From positions 350,855 to 414,854 of the forward strand of contig JBAZJY010000002.1 of the NCBI GenBank assembly GCA_041651115.1: a stretch of DNA of 64,000 bases, given 5' to 3'. The stretch's first letter is position 1; every line of letters begins with the position of its first letter. The notes beneath the pieces were generated by a model. It saw only the letters and a program-made list of their open reading frames with translations. It searched no databases and was not told the origin of the DNA. Made by a program: the position numbers and the translations under genes. Shown in pieces: positions 14,391 through 56,420 of the stretch. Source of the DNA: Candidatus Omnitrophota bacterium (GTDB lineage: Bacteria > Omnitrophota > Gorgyraeia > Gygaellales > Profunditerraquicolaceae).

Positions 14391-14399
14391 ATTCCGGCA

Positions 14400-16746: not shown

Positions 16747-16752
16747 TATAAA

Positions 16753-18044: not shown

Positions 18045-18080
18045 TTTTGCCATAAGGCAGGGGAAGCAGATCTTGAGTTA

Positions 18081-20275: not shown

Positions 20276-20293
20276 ATAACAGGCTTAATCAAA

Positions 20294-20427: not shown

Positions 20428-20439
20428 AGAGTTTTTCTT

Positions 20440-20745
20440 ATGAAACTGTTACCGAAAGAACTGGCACAAAAGATACCTAATCTCTATTCGCAGGAATATA
20501 AGGGCGAAGAGGCGTTGGTTTATATTAAATTATTCGATCCCTGCAGTAACTGGGCATGGTTTGCCACGGAATTTGATGGTGAGGATACTTTTTTCGGATT
20601 AGTGATTGGCCATTTTACAGAACTGGGCTATTTCAGCTTAAAAGAATTAGAGAGTTTTCGCAACCGTCTTGGGCTGGGTATTGAAAGGGATTTGCATTTT
20701 ACACCTATGACTCTAAAGGAAGTGAGGGAAGTAAATGGCTGCTAG
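20440..20745 (+). CDS. DUF2958-like conserved phage/plasmid protein
   Basis: LPxLYSQE...KLFDP..NWAWFATEFDGEDTFFGLV..ELGYFSL.ELE....LGLGIERDLHF pattern recalled from plasmid/ICE proteins. Confidence 0.5.
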   Translation: MKLLPKELAQKIPNLYSQEYKGEEALVYIKLFDPCSNWAWFATEFDGEDTFFGLVIGHFTELGYFSLKELESFRNRLGLGIERDLHFTPMTLKEVREVNGC

Positions 20746-20793
20746 GTCTATATTTTTATTGATAATTATTCTGCCGGTAGTATCATAATTCCT

Positions 20794-21399: not shown

Positions 21400-21401
21400 A
21401 T

Positions 21402-22355: not shown

Positions 22356-22371
22356 AAACTAGAAAGGCAGT

Positions 22372-24206: not shown

Positions 24207-24462
24207 AGGTTATTTTTCATTGTAGCTCCCTAAAATAATAAGGGAGCGCATATCTGCTACCGGCAACGTTCAAGTAAATCCGATAGAGCTGCATTTCTCC
24301 CTGCCCTTTCGGGCAACGAAACAGCTCCACCATACTTGAACGTTCACAGGGCTCTCCCCTGTGTTATGGTAGAAACGAACTGCTCCTGATTGTAAAAACT
24401 AACTAAAGTATATCAGCCGGTTAGGTTATTGTCAATTGAGCTATGTTAGGAAGCATAGTTAT

Positions 24463-24596
24463 TTTTTAACTTTTTTGGGCTGGCAAAAAGCTACCTGTTT
24501 ATTGTGTATGGTCATAGTTTGACTTGTGCTGGGAGATTTTATGCTGATAAATGATTTTACCTTTTGAGCCAAAAATAACCCAACCTATGCCCTGTT
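24463..24596. repeat. 134 bp direct repeat, copy 2
   Basis: Perfect match to 20294..20427. Confidence 0.9.
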
Positions 24597-24648
24597 TCTA
24601 AATATATCCAATCTTAATCAGGCACGTGATGCTTCTAAGTAAAAGCCC

Positions 24649-24676
24649 TTGACTTTTTCAAAATGTAGCATATAAT
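24649..24676 (+). promoter_or_regulatory. Strong sigma70-like promoter (TTGACT, 16 nt spacer, TATAAT)
   Basis: Near-consensus hexamers read from the sequence. Confidence 0.55.
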
Positions 24677-24683
24677 TTTATTC

Positions 24684-24795
24684 AAGATACGATATAGTGG
24701 TGCGTTACGGAGAGGGAACCTCCACTTTAAAAAAGTAAAATCTCCACGAGCCGATTGCTCATGCACATTTGCGCTTGTGGGGATTTTTTATTTTA
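24684..24795 (+). ncRNA. Candidate sRNA (about 110 nt) with its own promoter and intrinsic terminator
   Basis: No ORF; internal ggagaggg/cctcc hairpin; terminator stem tctccacgagc/gcttgtgggga plus TTTTTTATTTT at 24741..24795. Confidence 0.4.
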
Positions 24796-24911
24796 TAGGG
24801 AAATTAGCTTGGTTAATTGACAAGACGAAAGGTAGGTGAATAATCTTTTAGGTATCTTGAGCGACCGAGTTTAAGTATAAAAACTATAAATATTGAAAAC
24901 GGAGGACTTAA

Positions 24912-25142
24912 ATGGGTAAAAATCAGCACGTTGTGCCTTATGGTGATAAGTGGGCAGTTAGAGGTGAGAAAAACAGCAGGATAACTTCTGATCACCACAC
25001 GCAGGGAGCGGCGATTAGTGCTGCAGTAAAAATAGCCAAGCACGAGAAATCAGAAGTAGTGATACACGGCAGGGATGCGAAGATTCGGGATAAAGATAGC
25101 TACGGATCTGATTCTTGCCCGCCAAGAGACAAAAAATATTAA
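24912..25142 (+). CDS. DUF2188-like small protein (paralog 1)
   Basis: NQHVVPYGDKWAV...EVVIHGRDAKIRDKDSYG pattern; paralog at 27304. Confidence 0.6.
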   Translation: MGKNQHVVPYGDKWAVRGEKNSRITSDHHTQGAAISAAVKIAKHEKSEVVIHGRDAKIRDKDSYGSDSCPPRDKKY

Positions 25143-25272
25143 AATACTAGAGGGGCATGAAAATGCCCCTCAGTTCTAATGTATTTTTGTGGCTTATAGA
25201 AGGAAATGGTAATATAATACAATATGAATCATAAGGGATAGTATATACAGATGCAGGACAAGATATCCTAAA

Positions 25273-26019
25273 ATGAAAAATATTGAAACTATAGGTCTTT
25301 TTAAAAAAATATTACAGCCCGCATTTATTATAACTATTGCTACGTGTGTAGGATATCTATGGGGTTGGCATTATATAGATGGTTATTTAGAACGTTTTGG
25401 ATTAAATCATGATTCCTTTGAATTTTCTTTAACCTATTATTTGAATCAGTCGTTCTTTATATCCATTTTTCTTGCAATGATTTTGTTTTTTTCCATAGGT
25501 AGAAAAAAAGATTCTCAGTTGACTATCCCTCAAGCCTTTCAGCAGAACTCAATCATTTTATTATTTTTAGGAATTGGCTTGTCGATGGCATTTAAAGATT
25601 TTCCCTCCCCGAATGCAATAATGATACTGTTAAATTCATTAATTTTGTTAATTTATTTTGTTAGATTAAGCTGTAAGAAAAAAACGATTATCTCGGTTAT
25701 TGAGAATGAAGGGTCGCCAATAGTATTTCTTTTAGCTTTCTTATTAATGATTTTACTAGGACTTTTGATTAGTAGAGATTTCGGAGAAGAACATGCCCGG
25801 AGGACCATCAGTGGCGCACTTAATAATTTATCTTCGATCTCTTTTGTATCTGATAATCCATCAATCACTGATCTCAACAAAAAAGAATTAAATCTTATTT
25901 TTTATCATAATAGTAACTATTATTTAGTTGAAAAAGAACAGCCAGCGCCTAAGTTCCCTAAAATTTTTATTGTTCCAGATAAGAATATAGAGTATGTAAT
26001 TTGTAAAAAATTTAATTAA
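25273..26019 (+). CDS. Hypothetical polytopic membrane protein (AT-rich gene)
   Basis: Multiple hydrophobic segments; very low GC compared with its surroundings. Confidence 0.5.
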   Translation: MKNIETIGLFKKILQPAFIITIATCVGYLWGWHYIDGYLERFGLNHDSFEFSLTYYLNQSFFISIFLAMILFFSIGRKKDSQLTIPQAFQQNSIILLFLGIGLSMAFKDFPSPNAIMILLNSLILLIYFVRLSCKKKTIISVIENEGSPIVFLLAFLLMILLGLLISRDFGEEHARRTISGALNNLSSISFVSDNPSITDLNKKELNLIFYHNSNYYLVEKEQPAPKFPKIFIVPDKNIEYVICKKFN

Positions 26020-26126
26020 TTTATGATTATATAGTAACTCAATGAACCTATGTTAATGGTGATTGTAGGCGTTGGTAAATATCATGGACAGAGAACACGC
26101 TAAACAAAAATGATTAAAGGAACTAT

Positions 26127-27293
26127 ATGCGCAGAGGCATAGTTGATATCGTACAGGAGAATAGCAGGGACATAGAAAGAAAAATTCTTTCTGAGTTCGC
26201 GACAAAAAGTTGTGATGCTTTAAGGCGGTTACCGGAGAAATTAGGCGTTAGGCCCGATTTCTTTAGGGACACGGATAGGATATTGCATTCTAAATGTTAT
26301 GCGAGATATATTGATAAAACACAGGTATTTTATTTATTTGATAATGATGATATTACTCATCGAGTATTACATGTTCAATTTGTCTCTAAGATTGCCAGAA
26401 CCATTGGTAGAGCTTTAAAACTGAATGAAGATTTAATTGAAGCAATAGCGTTAGGGCACGATGTTGGGCACCCTCCCTTTGGGCATGAAGGTGAAAGTTA
26501 CTTAGACGAACTTTGTTTGCATTACAAAATAGGTCATTTTGTTCATAGTGTTCAAGGAGTAATTTTTTTAGACAAAATTGAGAAAAGAATGGAGATAAAA
26601 CCATTGAATTTAAGTTTACAAGTTTTAGATGGCATACTTTGTCATGATGGCGAGAAATTTAATGATTATTTAATACCTCAAAGAAAGAAAACATGGTCAA
26701 CACATTATAATGAACGAAAGGAGAAGATGTTTAACAAGCAAGTAGCGCTCGTTCCAATGACCATGGAGGGTTGTGTTGTTAGATTTGCGGATGTTGTAAG
26801 CTATATTGGAAGAGATATTGAAGACGCTATAACGCTAAGACTAATAAAAAGACAAGATCTGCCAAGGGAATGTACAAAGGTATTAGGGGATAATAACAGA
26901 GATATAATTAACACATTAGTTACCGATTTGATAGAAAACAGCAAAAGAATTGGCGACAGGATATATTATAGTAAAAGAACCTCTAAGGTTTTAAAGAAAC
27001 TTAAGAAATTTAATGACAAAAATATCTACTTGAATAAAAAAATAAAGAGAGAATCCCCAAAAAATAAAAAATTATATACTCTTCTATTCGAAGAATTTCT
27101 TCATGATATAAAAGTAAAAAACAGTAGATCAGAAATATTTACTCAATGGAGTGACATTAAAGATGCCAAGTATATTTCAAAATGTAGACACCCAGAAATC
27201 GTACGCGATTTTTTGTCATCTCTTACAGATGATTATTTTATAGGGCTTTTTGAACGGAAATTTTTCCCAAGAAGATTTGGAATACATTTCTAA
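26127..27293 (+). CDS. dGTP-triphosphohydrolase-like HD-domain protein (Dgt family-like)
   Basis: H..RxxH at the N-terminus, ALGHDVGHPPFGHEGE signature of the dGTPase family, later D motif. Confidence 0.7.
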   Translation: MRRGIVDIVQENSRDIERKILSEFATKSCDALRRLPEKLGVRPDFFRDTDRILHSKCYARYIDKTQVFYLFDNDDITHRVLHVQFVSKIARTIGRALKLNEDLIEAIALGHDVGHPPFGHEGESYLDELCLHYKIGHFVHSVQGVIFLDKIEKRMEIKPLNLSLQVLDGILCHDGEKFNDYLIPQRKKTWSTHYNERKEKMFNKQVALVPMTMEGCVVRFADVVSYIGRDIEDAITLRLIKRQDLPRECTKVLGDNNRDIINTLVTDLIENSKRIGDRIYYSKRTSKVLKKLKKFNDKNIYLNKKIKRESPKNKKLYTLLFEEFLHDIKVKNSRSEIFTQWSDIKDAKYISKCRHPEIVRDFLSSLTDDYFIGLFERKFFPRRFGIHF

Positions 27294-27303
27294 AGGAGGA
27301 GAG

Positions 27304-27534
27304 ATGAGTAGAAACCAACATGTCGTTCCCTACGGAGACAAATGGGCTGTGCGAAAAGAAGGGAATACTAGGATAACATCTTCACACATAACTCGGAGAG
27401 ATGCTATCCATACTGCGAATAGAATTGCTTCGTCGGAAGCTTCTGAAGTGGTTATACATGGTAGAGACGGGAGAATTCGAGATAAAGACAGTTACGGTTA
27501 CGATGCGTTACCACCACGATGCAGGAAATACTAA
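27304..27534 (+). CDS. DUF2188-like small protein (paralog 2)
   Basis: MSRNQHVVPYGDKWAV...EVVIHGRDGRIRDKDSYG; RBS aaggagga; ORF-track start 27250 rejected. Confidence 0.6.
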   Translation: MSRNQHVVPYGDKWAVRKEGNTRITSSHITRRDAIHTANRIASSEASEVVIHGRDGRIRDKDSYGYDALPPRCRKY

Positions 27535-27686
27535 TTTTTAAAGAAAGAGGACTCATTAATCTGAAAGAAATCAAGGCTGTCAAGAGAGGTAGTAGTTGGC
27601 ATGATCTCACCTTTTAATATCGTCAAGAAAGGTCAAAAATATAGCCTTTGTTAATTCCATTTAGTCCCCCCTATAAGTGAATACTA

Positions 27687-27935
27687 TCAAGCTAATTTAC
27701 ACTCGAATTCATCTAAGTCCTGCCGGCTTTTAGCAATGATTTCTTTTATGCATGTCTGGCAGTAAACCTTTCTTCCCATGCTGCCGGGAATAGGAACTAC
27801 AATGCATACAGTTCCTCCGTAAATCGCTGTGTTGCACCTTTTGCAAGTTCGTTTTCCTTTTGCAGTGTCTAATTTTGGCGCTCCATGTGTTCCATTGATA
27901 AGAGAAGGACATTTTCCACGTTTTTTACTTATCAC
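27687..27935 (-). CDS. Small Zn-ribbon protein (82 aa)
   Basis: CKRCN...CIVV...CQTC Cys quartet; directly downstream of the helicase and overlapping it. Confidence 0.45.
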   Translation of the reverse strand: MISKKRGKCPSLINGTHGAPKLDTAKGKRTCKRCNTAIYGGTVCIVVPIPGSMGRKVYCQTCIKEIIAKSRQDLDEFECKLA

Positions 27936-29952
27936 CCTTAGCCTCCTTTTTAGTTAAGCGTCTTGTTAGGACATTGAGAATATTGTCAAGGGCTTCTATC
28001 GCTTTTACATAGTCTTCAGTTCGTAACTTTTCCCGTTCGCCTTTTTCAATTCCGAGCTGCTTATTTACCTCATGATTTATAAGTTGGACAGCGGCTGCAA
28101 AGTTAGGCCCAGTGACTCCACTACTCTGAGCAAGTTTATAGGCTAAATCTTTTCCGTCAAATGAGATGTCCAAGCGATTCAACAATAGTTTTGCCGCTCG
28201 TTTTACCTCTTCATGCAAACGTCGCTTCGCCTCGTTCCTTTGCCGTTGGGGAATTACAGGGAAAGGTATGGTGGATTCCACTTTGTTTATTTTATCCCCT
28301 TGTTTATTTTTGAGGAATTCTGCTATGTCTTGAGCATCAATTCCAAGTGACTCAGCGGTAGCTTTCATTTCTTCGATAAGTATCTCGTCTTCCACATCAA
28401 TGAAATGTTCCTGTAGGAAGCTATCCACTATTTCATTGCGAATGATCGTAGATTCACTAAGTTTTAATCTTGTACTACCTTCAAGCACCTCTCGAGGAGG
28501 CTCGGGTTCTTTGCCTTTAATAATATCTGTGAAGAATTCTCGGTCGTCCCTGTCAATTTCACGGAAATCAGCAAGATGGGTATCTATGTTAAGCCCAATA
28601 TGTGTTACTATGTGACCATAATTATCAGGGTGTCGAGGGTCATTTTGGACGATGACACGCATTACTCGACCAACGAATTGGACATACGGTGGTAGGGTGC
28701 GGAAAGGCCTAAATATAGCTGCAACACTTAAATGAGGGTGGTCAAATCCCTCGCCGAGCATTTGAACTTGGATAATACAATCTAAGGCGCCCGCTCTCAA
28801 TTTATTTAAGACAGCATCTTGCTCATCGGGTAGCATTTTACTATGGATTTCCGCTGCTTCATAACCACGCTCAGCATATAGAGAGCGTATTGCCTTTGCA
28901 TGATTTACTGAACACGCAACTGCTATTAGTTGGTGCTTTGTTCCAGATTGCCGCAGATGTTCGAGTTTGTCGAGACTTGCGTCTACGATATTTTTATTAC
29001 AGACTGGGGATAAAGCCACACCACGACTAAACCATTCTTCATCTTTTAACACCAATACTTCTTCAAGTGTGTGGTATTTTTCATCACCTTCATATGTAAA
29101 ATAGAGTTCTTTAGGTGCGACATATGTTGCCTGTAATTTTTTTATGTAGCCTTTTATCATTGCCCGTTTGAATGAATACTTGTAAATTAGTTCACCTTCA
29201 ATTTCTTGTTGGTCACTTCTGAATGGCGTAGCAGTTAAATTAACAACCTTTGCATCCGGGAATCTACTAAATACTTTTTTCCAACTCGGGGCCGCACTAT
29301 GGTGTCCTTCGTCTACCAGAATCATATCAAAGAAATTATTTGTAAACTGTGGGAGCCAGCGGTCGGCGCTACTCGCCAGTTGCTGTATATTTGTCAAAAC
29401 AAAATGCGACTGTTCGCAATCATGGATGTTGGCATCGATGCTATCGAGAATAGCAAGATACGGGCCGGCTAAGGTTACGTCCGGATTCAGCACCCGGCAT
29501 TTAAACCAGAAGCAGTTTCTACGATTGGCGATATCTAAAGCCTTTCTTAATTCATCTCTGATGGTGAGATTTGGCGCGATCACGAGGATCCTTCCTTGGG
29601 CAATTCCAAGTGGAAGTAACGTAATGAGCCCTGATTTTCCACATCCAACCGGTAATTGAATTAACGCTTTTTTGGCTCCTTTCTCGAAAAAATTACGGGT
29701 TGCTATGTATGCTTCTTTCTGTGGGTCTCTTAATAGTAAATTGTCTTCTATTTTGAAATCCAGCGAAGCAAAGAAATTACCCATGGATTTATTAGCTTTT
29801 ATCCACTTGTCTAATTCAAGAACTTGGAATCGCCACATTTTTCCTACTTTGTGAGCAGGTATCCGGTTGCTCTGCGCAAGTGCGTATAAATTCGTTATGC
29901 TGATATCAAGATATTTTGCTGCTTCCTCTGCGTTTAGCCATTCTTCTCTCAT
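27925..29952 (-). CDS. HTH (excisionase/MerR-like) + SF2 DEAH/ResIII-type helicase
   Basis: N-terminal LNAEEAAKYLDISITNLY...HKVG.MWRF HTH; Walker A PVGCGKSG; DEGH box; TATP motif III; QFVGRVMR motif VI. Confidence 0.75.
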   Translation of the reverse strand: MREEWLNAEEAAKYLDISITNLYALAQSNRIPAHKVGKMWRFQVLELDKWIKANKSMGNFFASLDFKIEDNLLLRDPQKEAYIATRNFFEKGAKKALIQLPVGCGKSGLITLLPLGIAQGRILVIAPNLTIRDELRKALDIANRRNCFWFKCRVLNPDVTLAGPYLAILDSIDANIHDCEQSHFVLTNIQQLASSADRWLPQFTNNFFDMILVDEGHHSAAPSWKKVFSRFPDAKVVNLTATPFRSDQQEIEGELIYKYSFKRAMIKGYIKKLQATYVAPKELYFTYEGDEKYHTLEEVLVLKDEEWFSRGVALSPVCNKNIVDASLDKLEHLRQSGTKHQLIAVACSVNHAKAIRSLYAERGYEAAEIHSKMLPDEQDAVLNKLRAGALDCIIQVQMLGEGFDHPHLSVAAIFRPFRTLPPYVQFVGRVMRVIVQNDPRHPDNYGHIVTHIGLNIDTHLADFREIDRDDREFFTDIIKGKEPEPPREVLEGSTRLKLSESTIIRNEIVDSFLQEHFIDVEDEILIEEMKATAESLGIDAQDIAEFLKNKQGDKINKVESTIPFPVIPQRQRNEAKRRLHEEVKRAAKLLLNRLDISFDGKDLAYKLAQSSGVTGPNFAAAVQLINHEVNKQLGIEKGEREKLRTEDYVKAIEALDNILNVLTRRLTKKEAKGDK

Positions 29953-29990
29953 CGTAGCCTCCTTTGATAACTGATTTCATAATACCATAT

Positions 29991-30052
29991 TTAAATACGA
30001 TGTCAATTAGTATTATTTAGTATCATTTAGTATCATTTAGAGTTATTTATTA
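29991..30052. repeat. Short tandem/iteron-like repeats (tatcatttag family) in a divergent promoter region
   Basis: attagtattatttag / tatcatttag / tatcatttag / agttatttat in series. Confidence 0.5.
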
Positions 30053-30296
30053 ATGGGGTAGATATTTAAATCTAAAAGATTTCTTTGGGTAGCTGCGTTG
30101 AAATACTCAAGTTTTCTCTAAAAAACTTTTACCTTTTTAGCATAACTCCCCTCGGCATAAGCAGTTAGTAAATTCCTTCCATTCATTTCAGAGTTAATTT
30201 CCGTCGGTAAAATTACATAAAAGGTTAAAACTTTTTTACATTTTTCATTGACAAATAAGTACCATATGGTTCTTATATTGTTAGGAGGTGATTGTT

Positions 30297-31112
30297 ATGA
30301 ATTCCGACGAGATTGCGGTTGGCTATATACGAGTTAGCAGTATCAATCAGGTGGAAAATGGTGGTGGTTTGGCTATCCAGAGGAAGAAGATAACCAACTT
30401 CTGCAGAGAAAAAGGCTACAATCTAGAACGTTTCTACGAAGAAAGGGGAATTTCCGGCAGCATTAAAGAACGCCCTGCGTTATTAAGATTGTTAAAGGAC
30501 TGCGAGTCTGGTTTAATCAAAAGGGTAGTAGTTTTTCGTCAGGATAGGTTAGCTCGTGAATTAACAGTTTCCCTCTGGCTCGAGACTCAATTCAAGAAAT
30601 ATGATGTAGCAGTCAGCTCAGTTCTGGATCCAGAACTCGATATGAATGACCCGCTGCAGCTCGCTTTTAAAAGGCTGATTGATGTGTTTGCTGAATTAGA
30701 GAAAACACTTATTGTGACCCGTCTTAGAGAAGGCCGGGTTGATAAGGCCGAGAATGGACGTAGAGCTGTCGGTGCAATTGCTTTTGGCTATTATAAAGAG
30801 AAAGACGGTTTGGTTGTTAACCTTGAAGAATCCGAATGGGTGAAAAAGATTTTTCGGAACGCAGCTAAGGGAAAGAAATACTCAGAGATTGTGGCGATGC
30901 TTAAAAAGAACGGCGTAGTTACACGGCGAAAGAAACCGTTCAGTATTGAAACAGTTAAGTATGTCTTACGAAACTCTTTTTATTATGGTGAGTCAACCTA
31001 CGGCGATATAAAGAGCAGGGGGGAGCATAGGCCTATTATTAGTAAACGACTTTTTGTTAGAGTTCAAAAGGTCAAAAGGAAAGAAGTATTGTTACCAGCT
31101 AGGGTTTCGTAG
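30297..31112 (+). CDS. Serine recombinase (resolvase/invertase family)
   Basis: VGYIRVSS catalytic Ser motif, RLARE; RBS aggagg 8 nt upstream of ATG 30297. Confidence 0.8.
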   Translation: MNSDEIAVGYIRVSSINQVENGGGLAIQRKKITNFCREKGYNLERFYEERGISGSIKERPALLRLLKDCESGLIKRVVVFRQDRLARELTVSLWLETQFKKYDVAVSSVLDPELDMNDPLQLAFKRLIDVFAELEKTLIVTRLREGRVDKAENGRRAVGAIAFGYYKEKDGLVVNLEESEWVKKIFRNAAKGKKYSEIVAMLKKNGVVTRRKKPFSIETVKYVLRNSFYYGESTYGDIKSRGEHRPIISKRLFVRVQKVKRKEVLLPARVS

Positions 31113-31631
31113 TTCGTTGATGTTCATTTTTTCCGAATGGCTCTGGAATTCTGGCATATGAGGCCAACAGGATACTTCCTGAAGTCGCTTTAAATGTTCT
31201 TGAGTGACGATTAGTGATTCCCGTTTTTTCCCGTTGCGAAGAAGGCTTCTAAAGAATTGACGCCTTAAATAATAATCAAGTTTCTTAGCATTTTTAAGGT
31301 AAGAATCGTAATCCTCAGGGTCATCATGGACTTTTCTAATCCAGTCGATTATTGTATTGGGTCGGGTATTAAGCGCGCGGGCAATATCGATAATACGCAT
31401 CCCGTTATTGTATCGACCAATTGCATCATCGAATTTATCGGGTGACACGCGCATTCCTTTGAAAAATGGCTCTTGAAGTAGCGTGAATGCTTTTTTGCAG
31501 CTTCGACAGTAAATCCTCTGCACTGCGGGTTTATTTTTCAACCTGCGTTTCCCGTAATAAATAGCGATTTTGTGACATTCTGGACAAGGTTCTTTGTAAG
31601 GCATAGGTAGATTATACCGCAGAAACGCCAA
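31092..31631 (-). CDS. InsA-like Zn-ribbon + HTH protein (IS1-type transposase N-terminal fragment or regulator)
   Basis: CPEC...CRSCKKAF Zn ribbon followed by an HTH (IIDIARALNTRPNTI). Confidence 0.45.
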   Translation of the reverse strand: MAFLRYNLPMPYKEPCPECHKIAIYYGKRRLKNKPAVQRIYCRSCKKAFTLLQEPFFKGMRVSPDKFDDAIGRYNNGMRIIDIARALNTRPNTIIDWIRKVHDDPEDYDSYLKNAKKLDYYLRRQFFRSLLRNGKKRESLIVTQEHLKRLQEVSCWPHMPEFQSHSEKMNINELRNPSW

Positions 31632-31833
31632 CTGTCAAGCGATATAAAACGACAGCTAACCGATATAGGAGTCTTTATTGATTAAAAATATTTTTTTTCT
31701 GGTTCTGTAACTTATTGTATAACAGGATGATGCATCATTGAATTTTTTTAAAGTTTTTCTGAATTGGTGCGTATTAATTCTGAAGGGGGGAGTTCAGACA
31801 CGGTTAGTTCCCCTCAGAAGGAGGTGAGGTTAG

Positions 31834-32016
31834 ATGGAGCGCTTTATTAAGGTTGAGTGTTTGAGATGTGGTGAGCAATACTATATACCAGCGTATAAGC
31901 TCCCGCAAGAAAAGGCAGAGATTCTTGATGCAGCTTTCCCTAGCAGGTGTCCCTTTTGCGAAGATAGCGATTACGCTGTATTAACAGTTCCAAACGAACT
32001 TAAGAAAAGGAAATAA
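31834..32016 (+). CDS. Small Zn-ribbon protein (60 aa)
   Basis: CLRCG...CPFC; strong RBS aggaggtgag. Confidence 0.35.
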   Translation: MERFIKVECLRCGEQYYIPAYKLPQEKAEILDAAFPSRCPFCEDSDYAVLTVPNELKKRK

Positions 32017-32095
32017 CACGGTGCAGCAGGAGTTTGGGTTGTTATCCTGAACTCCTGCTGCCAAAAAATGTAATTTAAGCTATGGAGGTAATCAA

Positions 32096-32320
32096 ATGAA
32101 GGCAATCTGGAATGGCGAAAAGTTATTGATTAGACGCAAACAAGTAGGGTTAACTATGGCTGAATTAGCCGCAAAAGTGGATTGTGACCGGCCATTGGTG
32201 TCAATGTGGGAAGCAGGCAAGGTAGCTCCGTCCGGGCATTTTCTTGTGATGCTCGGCATCACATTGAATATTGAGCCGAAAGAGTTTTATAATCTGGAGG
32301 ACGAAGGAGTGCAGCTATGA
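32096..32320 (+). CDS. XRE/Cro-type HTH regulator
   Basis: LTMAELAAKVDCDRPLVSMWE HTH. Confidence 0.6.
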   Translation: MKAIWNGEKLLIRRKQVGLTMAELAAKVDCDRPLVSMWEAGKVAPSGHFLVMLGITLNIEPKEFYNLEDEGVQL

Positions 32321-32508
32321 GTAACCTTTTAACTCCAGAGCAAGTATGCGAGAGGTATGGTATAAGCCGGTGGACGCTCTATCAGTGGACATCCAAGCAT
32401 CTTATACCATATCTCAAGATTAGAGGGCTAAACCGTTTCAGGGAAGAAGATCTTGAGAAGTGGGAAGAACAAAATCTGGTAAGCGATGGGAAGGCTGAAT
32501 TGGTATGA
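32317..32508 (+). CDS. xis: Excisionase / AlpA-like HTH protein
   Basis: QVCERYGISRWTLYQW motif; immediately upstream of the integrase and overlapping it. Confidence 0.6.
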   Translation: MSNLLTPEQVCERYGISRWTLYQWTSKHLIPYLKIRGLNRFREEDLEKWEEQNLVSDGKAELV

Positions 32509-33572
32509 GACAGCGTTATCGAATGCCAAAATCTATTTACCCCCGTGGCAACTGGTATTGCTTTAAGGTAACTACTTCTTATGGCAAGAGAGTCGAGGTT
32601 AAGTCAGCCACCATGGAAGAGGCGCGTAAGAAACGCAACGATATAGAGCGTCAGATATTCAGTGCCGTGTCTGGAGATCCATCCTATAGAGTTAGCCTTG
32701 AGCATGGAATAGGGTTTTGGCTAAAAATTAAGAAAGGAAGTATCGACGATACCTCATATGATAGATACCGGGGATGTTTAGATAACTTCCTTGATTATAT
32801 TAAGGCAAAACGCTCCGATTTACAATATTTCGACCAAATAAAAGCGGAGGACATTAAGGCATTTATGGACTATCGGATCGAAGAGAAGGGGCGGGCGACT
32901 AAGACCGTGAATTCTGAAAGGCTGGCTTTATACAACTTATTTCTTACCTTGATTAAACATAAGAAAATTGAAGGTAGTAATCCCGTGGAAAATGTTGACC
33001 CATTAAAAATGATTAAGGTCCAAAAGAGGCATGCTCTTTCTGATGAGGAATTGTTGAAATTTCTTGAGGGTGCCAAGGCAGAAAGCGGGGCTATTAATTG
33101 GTATGCTATCTTTCTTACCTTATATATAACCGGCATGAGAAGGGATGAGGTTCGGAAGATGGAGAAAACAGCAATAGACCTGTCCAGAAATCTGATAATT
33201 ATTTTGAACACCAAAACCGATAAGCCAAAGATCATACCGATACATCCTGAATTGCGGCCAGTATTGCAGCAGGCGTTGGGGCAGTCCAATAGCGGCTTGG
33301 TATTTCCTAACTCTAAAGGCGGGCTGCTTCATAAGAACAAAATTCGGGATAAGATGATTCAGATATGTGAGAGGGTCGGTATCCCTAAAGCAACGGTTCA
33401 CGATTTACGCCATACATTCGCGAGCCGCCCAGAATTATCCGGTATGGCCAAGCAACTTATAGGCGGTTGGAGCAGCAAGCAGGTAATGGAGAAAACCTAT
33501 ATTCACGCCCCCGAGGATTATGTTCGAGATGAGTATTTTAAGGTTAAGTTCATACCGAAGGCAGGAAACTAA
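32505..33572 (+). CDS. int: Tyrosine integrase (phage integrase family)
   Basis: Conserved R...HDLRHTFAS...Y catalytic region; adjacent to attR. Confidence 0.85.
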   Translation: MRQRYRMPKSIYPRGNWYCFKVTTSYGKRVEVKSATMEEARKKRNDIERQIFSAVSGDPSYRVSLEHGIGFWLKIKKGSIDDTSYDRYRGCLDNFLDYIKAKRSDLQYFDQIKAEDIKAFMDYRIEEKGRATKTVNSERLALYNLFLTLIKHKKIEGSNPVENVDPLKMIKVQKRHALSDEELLKFLEGAKAESGAINWYAIFLTLYITGMRRDEVRKMEKTAIDLSRNLIIILNTKTDKPKIIPIHPELRPVLQQALGQSNSGLVFPNSKGGLLHKNKIRDKMIQICERVGIPKATVHDLRHTFASRPELSGMAKQLIGGWSSKQVMEKTYIHAPEDYVRDEYFKVKFIPKAGN

Positions 33573-33649
33573 TGTCACGCTATCGTCACGAAAGGATGTT
33601 GCAAATGTCAGAACCTTCTGATAATATAGATAATTATGCAAAACCGGGA

Positions 33650-33669
33650 TCCGATTCCCTCCCTCGGCA
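33650..33669. repeat. attR: second copy of the 20 bp tRNA-Phe 3' core
   Basis: tccgattccctccctcggca identical to 16724..16743. Confidence 0.8.
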
Positions 33670-33680
33670 TTTAAATTTTA

Positions 33681-33709
33681 AGAGGGGTTATCGCAACCCC
33701 TCTTTTTTA
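33681..33709 (+). terminator. Intrinsic terminator (probably the ancestral tRNA-Phe terminator)
   Basis: agagggg...cccctct stem plus a T-tract. Confidence 0.5.
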
Positions 33710-33727
33710 TTGGGGTTTTATGCGCCT

Positions 33728-34900
33728 ATGAAGATAAAATACCTGAGATTATTGGATAAATATTTAGGGTTTTTGCTGATCCTGGCTATCCACTTAGCTA
33801 AAATATTCAGCAAAGCGCCCCATTTTTCCGGTAAGCAGAAGGTAGAAAAGATACTGATCATCAAGTTCTGGGGTTTCGGGAGCATAATTTTAGGGTATGA
33901 TTTTTTTCAAGCCATACGCAAAGAATTTCCCGGCGCGCATATCTGCGTCTTAACCCTGAAACAAAACCGCCAAGTTTTTGAGATCAGCGGGATTTTCGAT
34001 GAAATAATTGATATCGATATAAGGGACCCGCTGCGTTTTGCGATAGATGCCGCCAGGGCAGTCATTTATTTAAGAAAGAAATCTTTTGATGTTTCTTTTG
34101 ACTTGGAATTCTCGGCAAGGTTTTCGGCCTGCATATCTTGTCTGATCAATGCCAGGCGGAGGGTGGGTTTTCAGTACGACGGCATCTGGCGAGGGAATTG
34201 TTTTTCGGATCTCCTGCATTTCCGGGAAGACGCAAAACTAAAAGATTCTTACCTGGGAATGATTTATCGTATAAAGAGCGATGCCGCGGCGCCTTCCCGG
34301 CCGCTTGAATTAGAAATTGGAAATGAGCAGAAAGCGATTGTTGATGATCTGCTTAAGAAGGAATCTTTAAAAGGTGCGGGCCCGCTAGTCGCGATCAACA
34401 TAAACGCAAGCGAATTATGTTTATTAAGGCGCTGGCCAAAGGAATATTTTGTTATTTTAGCCGAAGAATTGATCAAGCTGTATTCTGCGCGTATAATATT
34501 TATAGGTTCAGAAGAGGACTTTCATTATGTAAGTTCCGCGATCAGCCTGATACAGCCGGGCCGGAGGGAAAGTATCCGTAATTTTGCGGGTAAAACTTCT
34601 TTGGCGCAGTTGGCTTATTTAATGACAAAATTCAGGTTATTTATTTCTAATGACAGCGGGCCTTTGCATTTAGCCGTTTACTTAAAAGTTCCCTCGGTTT
34701 CCTTCTTCGGCCCGGAAACCCCGCTTATTTACGGGCCGGACAGGGCAGCAGATACGGTATTTTATAAAAACCCGGGCTGCAGCCCGTGCATCAGAGTCAA
34801 GAATTATAAGTTTGCCAAATGCGGCAATAACCACCTGTGCCTGAGAGAAATAAAACCATCCAGCGTTCTCGATGAAATCAGAAGAAAAAAATTACTTTAA
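33728..34900 (+). CDS. Glycosyltransferase family 9 (heptosyltransferase-like)
   Basis: KILIIKFWGFGSIIL N-terminus and GT9-like core; start moved to ATG 33728 to clear attR and the terminator. Confidence 0.7.
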   Translation: MKIKYLRLLDKYLGFLLILAIHLAKIFSKAPHFSGKQKVEKILIIKFWGFGSIILGYDFFQAIRKEFPGAHICVLTLKQNRQVFEISGIFDEIIDIDIRDPLRFAIDAARAVIYLRKKSFDVSFDLEFSARFSACISCLINARRRVGFQYDGIWRGNCFSDLLHFREDAKLKDSYLGMIYRIKSDAAAPSRPLELEIGNEQKAIVDDLLKKESLKGAGPLVAININASELCLLRRWPKEYFVILAEELIKLYSARIIFIGSEEDFHYVSSAISLIQPGRRESIRNFAGKTSLAQLAYLMTKFRLFISNDSGPLHLAVYLKVPSVSFFGPETPLIYGPDRAADTVFYKNPGCSPCIRVKNYKFAKCGNNHLCLREIKPSSVLDEIRRKKLL

Positions 34901-51712: not shown

Positions 51713-51789
51713 CGCGGGGTGGAGCAGCCTGGTAGCTCGTCAGGCTCATAACCTGAAGGCCAGAGGTTCAAATCCTCTCCCCGCAATTA
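51713..51789 (+). tRNA. Initiator tRNA-fMet (anticodon CAU); CCA not encoded
   Basis: CGCGGGGTGGAGCAGCCTGGTAGCTCGTC.GGCTCATAACC...GGTTCAAATCC..CCCCGCAA closely resembles the canonical bacterial initiator tRNA. Confidence 0.85.
51770..51786. repeat. att core (aaatcctctccccgcaa) at the tRNA-fMet 3' end
   Basis: Identical 17-mer at 56341..56357. Confidence 0.7.
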
Positions 51790-51890
51790 ATTCAACAAGA
51801 AGGCAGTCAATGAGTTACATCGTTGGCTGCTTTTTTGTTTATTAGTATAATCTATTATGTGCTAACGCTGTGCTAGCAGAATCTCTAAAT

Positions 51891-51977
51891 CGCCATCCCC
51901 CGGAGGGGTATCTGGCTCGATCCTTATAGGGTAAGTCAGTGATCACCCGTCACAGAGAACCTCCACGGAAATATTTT
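51891..51977 (+). ncRNA. Conserved roughly 90 nt non-coding motif, copy A
   Basis: GC palindrome cccccggagggg, then atctgg...tataggg.aag...cacccgtcacagaga.c.cc.cgg.aatattt; second copy at 53462..53547. Confidence 0.35.
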
Positions 51978-52217
51978 TAAGATAGGTAAAATGTAGCGTA
52001 ACTCATTAAATTAAATTAGGTTACGGAAAGAAAATGCACTATGTTTTAAGATTAAAAAACTGTTATTTAGTGTGTCCAAAACAGGTAAGCGGAAAGTGTT
52101 AAAAAATAAAACACCAATATGCGCGCGAATTATTAAGTTAGGATCGCATATAGTCTACTCCTTATGTTCATTGACAAGATACGTGGGTTGTGCTATCTTA
52201 TCACTTTGGAGAACATA

Positions 52218-53075
52218 ATGCTAAACGCAACCACCCAACAAAAAGAAAAGATAGTATTTCTCGGACCCGAAGAAACTTATAGCCACAAAGCAGCAAAATC
52301 TTTATTTGGCGACAAAGTTATCTATAATCCAGTAGCAAGCTTTGATTCCGTTATAAATGCGGTCATAGAGAAAAAGGCAGATAAGGGAGTTATTCCTTTC
52401 TTTAACCCTTACGAAGAACATATACGTGAATGCCAGGATAAGTTATTTAAGACTGAGTTAATAGCTACCGGTGTAACAAAAATAGATATCGATTTAACTT
52501 TAGCTACAAATAGATTAAAACTCGATGAAATCAAAAAAGTTTATTCAAATAGCCACGTATTTAAGCAGTGCGATATATGGCTAAGAAAAAACCTCCCAGG
52601 GGTTATTACCGAATTGGTAACGAGCACGGCTAAAGCAGCCGAAGAGGTAAAAATTATCCCGGGTTCTGCAGCGATATGCTCTTTAGAATCAGCGATGAAA
52701 AATGAGCTTGATACGATCGCTGAGCGTATACAAAATCCTAAGAACTTTACCTTATTTTTCGTTATTGAGCGTTCCGATTCTATAGCGCAGCGTAAAGAGT
52801 GGGGGTATTATTCATTTTTGTGTTTTAAGCTTAATAGTTCAAAAGAAAAAATGAATATTTTAGATATCCTTGATGCCCATCATTTACGGAGTTCACAAAA
52901 ATGGGATTTTCCTCATCCGTCAGATGATTATTTGCTTTTCTTTTTAGAATTTTTTGGCAGCTGGCTCGATCTTAATGTTGTGGCTTTTATCGCCGATTGC
53001 AAAAAGTATTTTAAAGACTTTAGATTAATTGGTACATTTGATCATAGTATTACCAAGGTATTGGAAACGATTTAA
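52218..53075 (+). CDS. Prephenate-dehydratase-like (PDT + ACT-like) protein
   Basis: IVFLGPEETYSHKAA...GVIPFFNPYEE...VYSNSHVFKQC...NFTLFFVIER pattern; ATG 52218 with RBS ggag preferred over the ORF-track start 52164. Confidence 0.5.
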   Translation: MLNATTQQKEKIVFLGPEETYSHKAAKSLFGDKVIYNPVASFDSVINAVIEKKADKGVIPFFNPYEEHIRECQDKLFKTELIATGVTKIDIDLTLATNRLKLDEIKKVYSNSHVFKQCDIWLRKNLPGVITELVTSTAKAAEEVKIIPGSAAICSLESAMKNELDTIAERIQNPKNFTLFFVIERSDSIAQRKEWGYYSFLCFKLNSSKEKMNILDILDAHHLRSSQKWDFPHPSDDYLLFFLEFFGSWLDLNVVAFIADCKKYFKDFRLIGTFDHSITKVLETI

Positions 53076-53116
53076 TTTCAGTTGACAAGAAAAAAAAACC
53101 TAATATACTAAAAGAG

Positions 53117-53389
53117 ATGGATTCTATGAGACAGGACTCCCCAAAACCTTTTTTAACCTTAGCAATAACTGAAATAAACGGCTGGGCCATGGCTTTATGC
53201 CCCGAGTTGGAAGTTTCTGCTTGTGGACCGGACCGGAATATTGCTGTTAATGATCTAAATGATATGATAAAACGCAACGCTTCTTTGATATTAAAAGGTA
53301 AAGAGCACGTACCGTCTCATGTTGTCGAGTGGGCAAAAGAAATTGCGAAGCAAACTGATGTCACTATTCTTTTTAAAAGACAGATATAG
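53117..53389 (+). CDS. HicB-like (UPF0150) antitoxin-fold protein
   Basis: WMALCPELEVSACGPDRNIAVNDLNDMI resembles the HicB N-domain. Confidence 0.4.
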   Translation: MDSMRQDSPKPFLTLAITEINGWAMALCPELEVSACGPDRNIAVNDLNDMIKRNASLILKGKEHVPSHVVEWAKEIAKQTDVTILFKRQI

Positions 53390-53461
53390 TAAATAGTATT
53401 GAGGTCGTATTTCAGAATTCATTAGGCTGGACTTAACTGTTCAGTCTTTTTTGTTTGTATT

Positions 53462-53547
53462 GATGCCCCCCCGGGGGGGCATCTGGTTTACCCTATAGCG
53501 GGTACAGTTATAACCACCTGTCACAGAGATAACCCCCGTAAATATTT
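53462..53547 (+). ncRNA. Conserved roughly 90 nt non-coding motif, copy B
   Basis: gatgccccccc/gggggggcatc perfect palindrome followed by the same conserved blocks as copy A. Confidence 0.35.
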
Positions 53548-53807
53548 CAGTTAAAAGCATTGACAAAATTTAATTTTGAGCTATACTCAAACTAGTGCGT
53601 GGAGCTCGCACTTAGCTAAATTAACCTTAGGGTGCCGGTAGGCACGAAGGAAAGGAGTCGTGAGATGAAAAAACATTTTTGGTAACAGCTACACATTGAA
53701 TAAGTGTGTAGTTTTTTGTTTATATGGCCCGGATGGGCTAAGGTTTACCCTTGGAAGGTACTGGACTGTAGAAGATTATTGGATCTATAAATAAAAAGGA
53801 GAATGAA

Positions 53808-54998
53808 ATGGATAAGAAAAAATTAGAGAAAGTTATTCTAAAATCAGACTATTCCCGCCGCTATCCAGACCCACTTAACAGTACCCAGGTTGAAGAAACT
53901 TATAGCATTGAACACCATGTGCTTCTGTGTAAAGCAAAAGATGTTCCTTCGGGAATATCCAAAGAGCCTAACCCCAGAGAACAGAGGATTGATTTGGGTA
54001 TCTATAAGGATATTCAGACCAGTCTGGAGGATGGAGAAGAACCGACTTTTCATCTGAAAAACAAAGGGATTACCTTATTGGCGCACAGCATCGATTACAG
54101 CGAAGATAAAAAAGTCGCCACAGTATACCTAGGTGAAAAAGATGGTATAGCTGACGGTGGGCATACTTATGAGATAATCCTCAATGCGATATCAAGAGGA
54201 GCCTGTCCGGATAGCCAGTATGTAAAATTCGAAATTCTTACTGGCGTTCCAAGCAGTATGGCCGTTGATATAACAGGAGGGTTAAACACCGCCGTTCAGG
54301 TACAAGAAGCCAGCTTGGCTAATCTGGAAGGTGCATTTGATTGGATTAGAGAAATTATTAAGCGTGAGCCCTATGCTGATAAAATAGCGTTTAAGCAGAA
54401 TGAAAGGAAGGACGTTGACATAAGGGATATAGTAGCTTTCCTTACACTCTTTAACGTTGAACAAAAGAGTTTAAAGGGTAGGCATCCGAGGGAAGCGTAT
54501 ACTTCGAAGGCCGCGTGTTTAAATCTTTACAAGGATGACCAGGATTCCTACGAAATGCTCGCTCCAATTCTGAAGGATATTCTGTACCTCAGCGATTACG
54601 TCCATATTAAATCTAGGGAAATCTACAATGCCGAGACAGGCGGTAAAGCTGGTGGCATGAAGGGTGTCTATGAGGGAAGGTTAAGGGGGAAGTTTCATTT
54701 TGTGTTTATGGATACCGATTATGAGTATAAGCTTTACAGCGGCACCCTATTCCCAATCTTAGGTGCCTTAAGATATCTTGTGGAGAAGAAACCAGGCCAA
54801 AACGTATATTCATGGAAATTGCGTTCGTTTGAAGAAGTAAAATCCTTCTTCAACAAGATAGCTGCTGATATGGTAGGCATTACCTATAACACGAGTATAA
54901 ACTATGGCAGAAAGCCGAATGCGGTAGGTAAAGATGAAAACCATTGGGATAATCTATATAAGACTGTAGCCTTAGCTTATCTGCAGGGTCGTCGTTAG
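53808..54998 (+). CDS. Hypothetical protein (396 aa), possibly abortive-infection-like
   Basis: ORF with RBS aaaaggaga; no confident motif; located in the islet next to the RES-like gene. Confidence 0.45.
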   Translation: MDKKKLEKVILKSDYSRRYPDPLNSTQVEETYSIEHHVLLCKAKDVPSGISKEPNPREQRIDLGIYKDIQTSLEDGEEPTFHLKNKGITLLAHSIDYSEDKKVATVYLGEKDGIADGGHTYEIILNAISRGACPDSQYVKFEILTGVPSSMAVDITGGLNTAVQVQEASLANLEGAFDWIREIIKREPYADKIAFKQNERKDVDIRDIVAFLTLFNVEQKSLKGRHPREAYTSKAACLNLYKDDQDSYEMLAPILKDILYLSDYVHIKSREIYNAETGGKAGGMKGVYEGRLRGKFHFVFMDTDYEYKLYSGTLFPILGALRYLVEKKPGQNVYSWKLRSFEEVKSFFNKIAADMVGITYNTSINYGRKPNAVGKDENHWDNLYKTVALAYLQGRR

Positions 54999-55055
54999 AG
55001 TATCTCTAAACGGGGGGCTTAATAGCCCCCCCTCTTTATTGGAGAAAATAAGTCT

Positions 55056-55970
55056 ATGGCAAGCGGAATTAAGAAAAGAAGTCTCACGGAAATAAGCTCT
55101 CAAATAGATAAAATTAAGAAATTGGATCTTAAAGTAGTTGATTTTATGGAAGTTCATAAGGAAATAAGAATCCTAATGAGCGAGTATACAGCTGTAGGAT
55201 TTCCAGCTTTACAGAATACTATTTATCGAGCAAGGCCTAATGATAAAGATAAGTTGTTTGAAACCATTAGTGATATGTGGGCCCCTCGTCCGGAAAAAAT
55301 GCCCCAGAATAGATTCGGCAGGGCAAACAAGCCCAGAAAACCGGTTTTCTATTGTAGTAATCGTGAAGAGACAGCCATTTCTGAATTACTAATTAATGAA
55401 GGGGATTGTGTAACAATTATGCGATGTTGTAGCAGAGGGGATACATCTGCTATGATGAATGTCGGGTTTGGTTTCAGGGATGAAGGGAAGCTACAATCTA
55501 AGGATGGAAAGACCATTATAAACTGGGGAAAGTACAAGGAAGAAAAGATACGCCGGTTATATAGTAAACAATATAGTATAGATAGGATCGTTCAGGAGTG
55601 TTTATTGAAAAATAAAATGATAGACGGGTTTTTGAATCAAGAATTTCGTAAAGAGATTAATTCTGACGAATGTAACTATGAGTATAAAATTACTGCTGCC
55701 ATCGCTAGTTTATATTTAGATAATCCCTTATCACATGTGAGGCTCGATGCGATTAGCTACCCAAGTATACGTACTGGTCTATCGGCTGGACCTAATTGGG
55801 CATTCACGATCGAATCAGCTAACAAATTTTATAAACCTGAACATTTAGAGACTATAGAGATTGACAAAATTGAAAATAAAAGCGAATCTATAAAATATTC
55901 TGGTAATGCTCGGTTTAAATCAAAAGAGATAAAGCACTCGGGACAAATTATCTGGGAAAAGCTAGTATAA
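55056..55970 (+). CDS. RES-domain-like protein (putative NAD+-targeting toxin family), 304 aa
   Basis: NRFGRANKPRKPVFYCSNREETAISE resembles the R-x-E-x-S core of RES toxins; longer than typical. Confidence 0.35.
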   Translation: MASGIKKRSLTEISSQIDKIKKLDLKVVDFMEVHKEIRILMSEYTAVGFPALQNTIYRARPNDKDKLFETISDMWAPRPEKMPQNRFGRANKPRKPVFYCSNREETAISELLINEGDCVTIMRCCSRGDTSAMMNVGFGFRDEGKLQSKDGKTIINWGKYKEEKIRRLYSKQYSIDRIVQECLLKNKMIDGFLNQEFRKEINSDECNYEYKITAAIASLYLDNPLSHVRLDAISYPSIRTGLSAGPNWAFTIESANKFYKPEHLETIEIDKIENKSESIKYSGNARFKSKEIKHSGQIIWEKLV

Positions 55971-56340
55971 CGTAACGTATTAGCCAGTAGAGAATTCCAG
56001 CAATTCACAGGTTTGACTTTTAATGCTTTTGTAATCCGTTCGATAGCATCAATCTTTAGCGTGGGTGGTCTAGATTTAAGGTGTGCCGTTGCCACTAGCG
56101 ATACTGTGCAATTCGTACCAACCTCCAATAGCTGGAAAATGGAGAATCTCACAATAGATGGCTTCGCTGTTGATCCTAGGTCGTAATTTTAATATCTAAA
56201 AATACGGTACCCTGTATCAAAAAATCTGATAATTTATCCGCTCTCCTAAGGTTGCAGAGGTTCTCCCGCAAAAAGCGTGCGGGATTAATTCGGCCAAGCA
56301 ACTTATGTCGCTGTCGCTCCATAAGTTGCGGCCTCATTAA

Positions 56341-56357
56341 AAATCCTCTCCCCGCAA
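56341..56357. repeat. Distal att copy (aaatcctctccccgcaa followed by CCA)
   Basis: Exact 17-mer match to the tRNA-fMet 3' end. Confidence 0.7.
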
Positions 56358-56364
56358 CCATAAA

Positions 56365-56420
56365 AGTAGGGACAGAGACTATTTTTATTTACAAAAAATA
56401 GTCTCTGTCCCTACTTTTTT
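56365..56420. terminator. Perfect 22 bp stem bidirectional intrinsic terminator
   Basis: agtagggacagagactattttt...aaaaatagtctctgtccctact followed by tttttt. Confidence 0.7.

Follow-up and report, generated by a model that had tools for sequence, protein, structure and literature searches.

The DNA examined here is a 64-kb window (64,000 nucleotides) on contig JBAZJY010000002.1 of an uncultured Candidatus Omnitrophota bacterium; all coordinates are positions in that window, and L-numbers (L007, L030 and so on) denote comparison loci from relatives and metagenomes. An earlier note, made from the sequence alone, had proposed that the DNA 3' of an initiator tRNA-Met (tRNA-fMet) gene is an islet lacking an integrase and bounded by a repeat of the tRNA 3' end. 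We find at this locus a complete tRNA gene, a foreign segment that carries three gene modules and, at its far end, a displaced tRNA fragment whose T-loop is interrupted by two hairpins, which we call the unit (Table 1). The islet itself follows a known pattern, and its novelty is the two-hairpin unit at its boundary.

The gene at the left end is of the initiator type, with C1 opposite A72, discriminator A73 and TTA in place of CCA (ARAGORN, Rfam). Its last 17 nucleotides, AAATCCTCTCCCCGCAA (51770-51786), recur at 56341-56357, where CCA follows (56358-56360). The earlier note had reasoned that a 17-mer present at many positions would speak against integration. Within the 64 kb it occurs exactly these two times, allowing up to two mismatches yields no extra matches, and none is expected from shuffled sequences. 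Both copies and the distal CCA thus stand as described, but 17 bp is not the true length of the repeat: the nine nucleotides directly 5' of the proximal 17-mer, CAGAGGTTC, are also found at 56255-56263, and the full repeat is 26 nt, CAGAGGTTC plus AAATCCTCTCCCCGCAA, comprising the whole T-arm and the acceptor 3' strand. In the distal copy, a 77-nt insert (56264-56340) separates C56 from A57 of the T-loop. A distal fragment reaching further 5' toward the anticodon arm was considered and rejected, the similarity there being no better than that of shuffles. Likewise, a search for internal copies of the attachment (att) site, as a sign of accretion inside the islet, found none.

Two bases past the distal CCA starts a perfect hairpin with 25-nt arms (56362-56386 and 56394-56418). 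Because the relatives L015, L021 and L051 show a terminator hairpin right after tRNA-CCA, we read this hairpin as the native terminator of the tRNA, lying outside the islet, and not as the 22-bp stem with which the islet had been said to end. With the CCA and this terminator following it, the distal copy is well explained as the displaced original 3' end of the tRNA, as first suggested. The missing CCA of the proximal copy is not diagnostic alone, because the tRNA-fMet gene of the relative L007 is natively CCA-less, with a terminator directly after it. Judged from its sequence, the hairpin just 3' of the window's tRNA is likely a terminator at the left edge of the islet.

The composition of the segment is foreign to its surroundings. 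G+C is 0.356-0.421 across 52001-56000 versus 0.46-0.51 in most neighboring 1-kb bins, in agreement with the AT-richness noted before. The order eno-ftsB-tRNA-fMet is conserved among the related loci inspected, and CCA is encoded in most relatives. Empty sites are seen across species: in L015, L021 and L051 no insertion separates tRNA-CCA from the terminator hairpin, and L015 reads ftsB-tRNA-CCA-terminator-purB with nothing in between. None of the four islet genes lies at the tRNA-fMet locus in 80 related loci, which answers the concern that the region might be conserved core genome. The nearest species representatives have an enolase 84% identical to that of the window, and the identical locus is also present on one ENA contig and one Logan contig. 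Comparison of the islet with plasmids and phages gave no match, and the junction 20-mer, a putative attP, is absent from IMG/VR.

Other loci carry insertions at the same tRNA. L030 has a 4.8-kb insert (11602-16405) and L039 a 185-bp insert (7069-7270) 3' of tRNA-fMet. Neither insert has an integrase, each is enclosed by 17-nt copies of the tRNA 3' end, and the two-hairpin unit was not picked up in either (L030 by covariance model R1, described below; L039 by sequence). The region 3' of tRNA-fMet is a recurrent insertion hotspot whose content varies between species. The anticodon loop of tRNA-fMet is itself interrupted in L012 (11633-11800) and L229 (1081-1279); in the latter, Rfam calls a group I intron (66.8 bits).

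Table 1. Features of the tRNA-fMet locus, in window coordinates
Feature	Position	Strand	Basis
Initiator tRNA-Met gene, complete, no CCA encoded	51713..51786	+	ARAGORN; Rfam tRNA 63.7 bits; sequence
Proximal repeat copy, CAGAGGTTC + AAATCCTCTCCCCGCAA (T-arm, acceptor 3' strand, to A73)	51761..51786	+	
Hairpin GCAGTCAA/TTGGCTGC and T-run just 3' of the tRNA	51801..51836	+	read from sequence; 12-nt loop exceeds scanner limit
Repeat element A (GC hairpin, ATCTGG, ..CCNGTCACAGAGA..)	51880..51985	+	
PDT-like protein, 285 aa, prephenate-dehydratase domain and divergent ACT-like tail	52218..53075	+	Pfam PDT 2.3e-39
87-aa partner of the PDT-like gene	53126..53389	+	conserved neighbor; no family match
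Repeat element B	53458..53556	+	
Conserved AIPR leader	53560..53807	+	alignment with upstream regions of AIPR homologues in L331, L333
AIPR-family protein, 396 aa	53808..54998	+	Pfam AIPR 8.3e-21
Divergent RES-domain protein (predicted), 304 aa	55056..55970	+	Pfam RES 25.8 bits
Non-coding spacer, cargo to displaced tRNA fragment	55971..56247	.	six-frame translation; open reading frames without Pfam match
Displaced tRNA fragment with T-loop insert (unit)	56248..56363	+	covariance model R1; fold; sequence comparison
Perfect 25-bp hairpin and T-run	56362..56418	+	inverted-repeat and terminator scans

The cargo falls into three modules, namely the PDT-like gene with its 87-aa partner, the AIPR gene and the RES-like gene, set apart by promoter-like sites (52171, 53082, 53560) and terminator-like sites (53424, 53687, 55012). 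These modules are independently distributed among other genomes. Searches against PHROGs gave no meaningful match for any of the four proteins. Between the last gene and the unit, six-frame translation and Pfam searches of the open reading frames (ORFs) revealed no recognizable gene remnant; an Xre-type helix-turn-helix pseudogene suspected by eye on the minus strand (55975-56152) had no Pfam support and was dropped.

The PDT assignment made earlier is confirmed by Pfam (135.5 bits; E-value in Table 1), and the protein scores below the NCBIfam equivalog cut-offs (106.7 bits versus a cut-off of 219). In an alignment, all members of the small PDT-like family have TLF in place of the TRF motif and have lost the ESRP motif of the ACT domain, whereas canonical sequences keep TRF. 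A promoter-like site precedes the gene (52171-52199), and the 87-aa gene has its own strong promoter-like site (53082-53109) and terminator (53424-53447). In five other contigs, L086 to L090, a small gene always lies 3' of the PDT-like gene. Its product is 48-63% identical to the 87-aa partner in L086, L088 and L089; in L087 and L090 it has 87 or 90 residues. The two genes together occupy 8001-9226 in L086, 8001-9166 in L088 and 1667-2838 in L089. Their contexts in the five contigs are unrelated, and in L089 the pair adjoins YaaC on a mobile element with a resolvase and an integrase. The PDT-like and 87-aa genes are a conserved mobile gene pair in Omnitrophota, and we regard them as a candidate two-gene conflict system. 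The small protein had been called HicB-like, and this label we abandon: four homologues have no Pfam match at E-values up to 10, a profile search against the Protein Data Bank (PDB) gave no match, and the single-sequence structure model is unusable (predicted local distance difference test, pLDDT, 56.8).

Two repeat elements, A and B, which are about 70% identical by eye, and a shorter relative, element C (53725-53795, containing GGTACTGGACTGTAGAAG), each lie directly after a terminator and ahead of the next module. No further copies turned up elsewhere in the window, nor in some 90 other loci. We considered A and B as structured RNAs or as cassette borders and rejected both readings. The plus strands fold near the level of shuffled sequences and the minus strand of B only marginally better (z -2.7), copies are missing from the ~90 loci, and the other PDT modules have no comparable flanking repeats.

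The 396-aa protein, previously left as an unknown, belongs to the AIPR family (75.4 bits, above the cut-off; profile positions 2-297 of 308, the domain spanning residues 53-352), and its gene is followed by a terminator-like hairpin (55012-55031). AIPR (PF10592) is counted among abortive-infection and defense genes (PMC3632139). The islet protein is like that family in its domain and in having a homologue near a restriction-modification (R-M) system and a SMODS gene; it differs in belonging to a short (~396 aa) single-domain subfamily, known from sequence, with its own leader and terminator. It has more than 1000 homologues; the matches listed, from several phyla and an archaeon, show 57-90% identity. 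The homologue in L331 is solitary, and the one in L333 is that beside the R-M system and the SMODS gene. A 230-nt leader is shared with both (L331, about 5800-6000; L333, about 2700-2955). It consists, in order, of a promoter-like site (53560-53587), two hairpins, a mini-ORF encoding MKKHFW (53665-53685), an intrinsic terminator (53687-53713) and GGTACTGGACTGTAGAAG; Rfam has no match for it. This arrangement may provide attenuator-type control of an abortive-infection gene.

For the RES-like protein, the earlier assignment survives in a weaker form. The match to RES (PF08808) lies above its cut-off of 23.2 bits and covers the N-terminal part (profile positions 2-49 of 157), and Pfam detects the domain, again in the N-terminal part, in six of six members of the family, so that the name holds for a protein that is divergent. 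Invariant residues include R89, in an FGRAN motif, and E110; near residues 235-237 there is a YPS motif whose Ser is present in five of the six members, and by our estimate ~120 residues are inserted between the R/E and S motifs. These three residues are candidates for the Arg, Glu and Ser of the RES active site. The AlphaFold model is confident, with a pLDDT of 84.6. The gene 5' of the RES-like gene is the AIPR gene in the window and encodes unrelated proteins of 84, 245 and 113 aa without Pfam match in L083, L084 and L085; no Xre/DUF2384-type antitoxin adjoins it in any of the four. The RES-Xre pairs (ParST, MbcTA, NatRT) share the RES domain and a predicted action by NAD+ degradation, and the islet differs from them in having no such antitoxin and in the unrelated upstream genes of the homologues. 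Stand-alone antiphage RES proteins (aRES) that deplete NAD+ were recently described (bioRxiv 10.64898/2026.01.28.702374). The islet protein, which has a RES domain, no conserved operon partner and defense-type neighbors, would most resemble these; its six-member family with the ~120-residue insertion sets it apart. The AIPR and RES-like genes are not found together elsewhere (L083-L085, L331, L333), and because of this a toxin-neutralizer pair formed by the two, as had been proposed, is unlikely. In L083, the RES-like homologue and an 84-aa gene lie between direct repeats of ~45 nt that contain a palindrome (2620-2667 and 4058-4103), which suggests that the RES-like module may itself be a mobile cassette.

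We turn to the interrupted tRNA copy. In the window, the T-stem 5' strand and TTC (56255-56263) are followed by two hairpins, H1 (56264-56284) and H2 (56285-56340), and then by AAAT, the T-stem 3' strand and the acceptor 3' strand, within 56341-56357, and CCA. Similar short segments lie directly 3' of tRNA-fMet in L013 (10526-10631) and, as a tandem pair, in L014; the units of L014 are at 99-300 and 11684-11880. A three-block pattern derived from the L013 and L014 copies gave at least 120 matches in metagenomes, compared with about 2 estimated by chance, and 56 distinct units (within L211-L330) are present among the matches listed once coding false positives are removed. The 5' half consists of the T-stem 5' strand, TTC, T, a hairpin of the form CCCGnn...nnCGGG and AT, and the 3' half of a second CCCGnn...nnCGGG hairpin, A, AAAT, the T-stem 3' strand, the acceptor 3' strand and sometimes CCA. 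The center, CGGGATCCCG, is a perfect palindrome. A covariance model, R1, was built without the window sequence and matches 56248-56363 with 35.5 bits (E 1.1e-7), H1 being canonical and H2 a longer, divergent hairpin. The window unit is predicted to fold with -48.5 kcal/mol (z -6.4), including an acceptor-like pairing GGTTGC/GCAACC across the discriminator and CC, and the L013 unit with z -4.8.

Most units lie 8-50 nt 3' of complete tRNA genes, and the tRNA genes concerned are of at least 14 isotypes. In a few loci, namely the window, L233, L266, L269 and L286, 1-7 kb of cargo without an integrase separates the unit from its tRNA, and L014 (two at fMet, two at Thr) and L293 have tandem units without cargo. 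Although pairing of the T-stem was not searched for, it is complete (5/5) in 36 of 55 units, whereas permuted sets reach this in 7.7 units on average and in 18 at most; in alignment A6 the T-stem helix is 88.5% paired, with double changes at four of five pairs. The acceptor strand is that of the adjacent tRNA in at least 21 of 44 units, and only 6 have the T-stem 3' strand of that tRNA. When the insert is deleted in silico, none of the 56 units becomes a full tRNA; all of them lie in partial tRNA copies. Hairpin cores that are near-identical (~85-90%, by eye) occur at Pro, His, fMet, Thr and Ser loci. Two copies have no tRNA flanks (L007 1762-1870 and L015 7301-7390). The core in L007 is flanked by a direct repeat, TTTAGACTTTWAATTT, and the core in L015 lies 3' of purB with T-loop-like flanks (TTTTC...GATTC). 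In the window region and ten unit-bearing loci, Rfam finds only tRNA and group I intron matches, and among enolase loci of many phyla, 1.18 Mb in total, units occur in close Omnitrophota relatives only. The unit family is large and previously undescribed in the databases searched.

On the reading that we favor, the unit would be a small non-autonomous insertion element that prefers T-loop-like TTC^RAWT and survives only in dispensable tRNA copies. As in miniature inverted-repeat transposable elements (MITEs), repetitive extragenic palindromes (REP), REP doublets (REPINs) and integron attC sites, it is small, has nested inverted repeats and occurs as near-identical dispersed cores, with copies flanked by direct repeats. 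Unlike these, it is tied to an exact T-loop position in partial tRNA copies, has no associated transposase, RAYT or IntI and no attC R' core, and is missing from Rfam. Other comparisons were dropped: a hammerhead reading finds no CUGANGA/GAAA core, an IS200/IS605-type reading (IS, insertion sequence) leaves no room between hairpin feet and flanks for guide or cleavage sequences, and the resemblance to the IS91-type target GTTC is bare.

For the islet as a whole, we favor, with moderate confidence, a 4.47-kb horizontally acquired islet at the tRNA-fMet 3' part, without an integrase, of decayed cis-mobilizable element (CIME) type, probably fixed, and carrying three defense-type modules. It extends from 51787 to ~56250, between tRNA-fMet and the displaced copy of the T-arm and acceptor 3' strand, which has kept the original CCA and the original terminator; restored, the insertion-free site would read tRNA ...CCCCGCAA-CCA-terminator. 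The islet would have arisen by site-specific recombination at the tRNA 3' part, as by tyrosine integrases that target the T-arm, with the integrase since lost or never present in cis. The cargo consists of three separately promoted and terminated modules, each found alone in other genomes, with defense functions suggested by their sequences. The 77-nt insert that interrupts the T-loop at the right-hand site makes it probable that the islet is fixed and immobile.

That the islet lacks an integrase, as first noted, is borne out by several searches. Pfam finds among the four genes only the PDT, AIPR and RES matches or nothing; at the right end (55900-56365) tblastn with the integrase of a second island in the window, at tRNA-Phe, gave nothing beyond AKQL, and so no protein-level remnant; translations of 51787-52225, read by eye only, showed no recognizable integrase; and no excisionase was found in the islet. 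A CIME is an att-flanked element devoid of recombination and transfer modules (PMC5704250, PMC6323972), and the islet is flanked by repeats and has no recognized recombination or transfer genes. It is like tRNA-linked islands and CIMEs in having a tRNA 3' repeat at both ends, a functional proximal tRNA, foreign composition and accessory or defense cargo. It differs in its very small size (4.5 kb), in being a mosaic of three unrelated modules, in its split right-hand site, in that no cognate integrase-bearing element can be named for it and in that no integrase gene lies beside the att site, as tRNA-integrated islands have.

Williams in 2002 is said to have distinguished sublocation classes of integrase sites within tRNA genes. 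The integrase of mycobacteriophage Ms6 is an example of those that use the T-arm or T-loop of a tRNA gene as attB (PMC1762012). The islet is like such cases in that the stretch identical in its two copies spans T-loop to discriminator (57-73) and in that the T-stem 5' strand is still present in the distal copy. It differs in having no integrase, and the T-stem of many units differs from that of the adjacent tRNA, which a crossover in the T-loop does not predict.

Several observations weigh against this interpretation. Since no integrase remnant is present, an islet that decayed and one that never had an integrase are indistinguishable. The other cargo-bearing units (L233, L266, L269, L286) lack an integrase as well, which is odd for repeated decay and fits service in trans. 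An insertion element leaves unexplained both the 8-50-nt spacing behind intact tRNAs and the acceptor-strand match combined with a T-stem mismatch to the adjacent tRNA. Empty alleles, which the earlier note had proposed to look for, are found across species but not in the same strain: in an exact look-up of the FtsB-like and HD-GAF proteins every contig is islet-bearing, and recent mobility cannot be judged. As to the cargo, PADLOC recognizes none of the four proteins as part of a known system, only 49 of the 157 RES profile positions align, and Foldseek of the RES-like model against the PDB gave no significant match, the best weak ones being ADP-ribosyltransferase toxins.

The main rival, possible if unlikely, is that a tRNA with its unit forms a hotspot on which a recombinase from another locus acts, in loose analogy to integrons, with the unit as the recombination site of a cassette and cargo-less units as empty cassettes. 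It would also account for the short spacing of units behind intact tRNAs. The integrase-less cargo of 1-7 kb in five loci and the tandem cargo-less units would be expected of such a system. An acceptor strand that matches, next to a T-stem that differs and pairs internally, fits a crossover between the T-stem and the acceptor strand; the duplication in L014 continues past CCA into the trailer, as in Campbell-type insertion; and the palindrome CGGGATCCCG suits a dimeric DNA-binding protein. However, no candidate recombinase is linked to the units, and a tyrosine recombinase lies near enough in only three unit contigs. Without cargo, a cassette would form a circle of ~110 bp, implausibly small for duplex recombination, and in the window islet three modules share a single unit. 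The two copies in non-tRNA contexts do not fit, and the left junction, GTTCTCC, has no integron-type R' core (GTTRRRY), in a test for attC in which IntI was not searched for. Among 2.9 million viral contigs (IMG/VR), the strict unit pattern found no true copy and one coding false positive, the loose pattern found chance matches only, and one unit sequence had no match in plasmids. The more specific proposal that the unit is the attachment site of an undescribed Omnitrophota gene-capture system, a tRNA-anchored counterpart of integrons with its recombinase in trans, in which tRNA 3' ends would serve as fixed points of entry and cassettes, defense genes among them, would be placed between tRNA and unit, we hold to be rather unlikely.

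A third and distinctly improbable reading takes the unit for a structured RNA with a function in the tRNA 3' trailer. It would imitate the top half of a tRNA and take part in processing or CCA addition or serve as a decoy, and the window copy would be the original trailer, displaced by the islet. The inspected cargo-less loci do have no terminator between tRNA and unit and one after the unit, the predicted folds are stable (z -6.4 and -4.8, as above), and helix bases are conserved while loops vary, orthologous Glu loci keeping the stems with different loops. But presence differs among close relatives, the same locus being empty in L015 and filled in L248 and L260, which share the downstream flank of L015. 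Moreover, almost no unpaired nucleotides are conserved beyond those derived from the T-loop, units match on both strands like a DNA palindrome, copies exist outside tRNA loci, and no Rfam family matches.

The tRNA-Phe island (16747-33669, ~17 kb) carries genes for AbiGi-like, REase-ARP, HD-domain, helicase and PolA-like proteins, together with a serine recombinase and the tyrosine integrase. The distal copy of its 17-nt repeat (33653-33669) lies inside the 5' end of a glycosyltransferase-9 ORF (33572-34900), and its proximal copy keeps CCA. The earlier note had suggested that the integrase of this island (32505-33572) mobilizes the islet, which would make the islet a live satellite, that is, a CIME or other mobilizable element moved in trans. 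We consider this very improbable. Both islands are bounded by a 17-nt repeat at tRNA positions 57-73, and the integrase gene adjoins the distal repeat of its own island. Moreover, a 15-mer, GGCCAAGCAACTTAT, is exact in the integrase gene (33446-33460) and at the right end of the islet (56292-56306; blastn E 2e-4 in a small search), where it lies in the 5' arm of the second hairpin of the unit. On the other hand, the repeats are equal at only 9 of 17 bases by our count, the 15-mer does not extend at the DNA or protein level, and the flanks of the two islands share no other motif beyond chance. The 77 nt interrupt the right-hand T-loop, the place of strand exchange for T-arm-targeting integrases, and neither an excisionase nor a same-strain empty allele was found. 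Finally, that nothing was inserted and the region is ancestral, the distal 17-mer being a chance or duplicated fragment, has a negligible probability even with relatives such as L007 natively CCA-less at tRNA-fMet, given a unique 26-nt repeat with no chance match expected, CCA and a terminator after the distal copy as after the intact gene in relatives, G+C lower by ~10 points and four genes missing from the locus in 80 related loci.

Taken alone, this is an ordinary small defense islet next to a tRNA gene, and it comes from a phylum for which metagenomes are almost the only source. Within it, the PDT-like gene and its 87-aa partner are a mobile pair that keeps company with defense genes, and the AIPR leader and terminator hint at regulated expression of an abortive-infection gene. 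The unit is a widespread structured element at one exact T-loop position, and it marks sites where integrase-less DNA accumulates. Whatever its nature, it would account for one class of annotated tRNA fragments, and it could reveal a new way in which tRNA genes are targeted.

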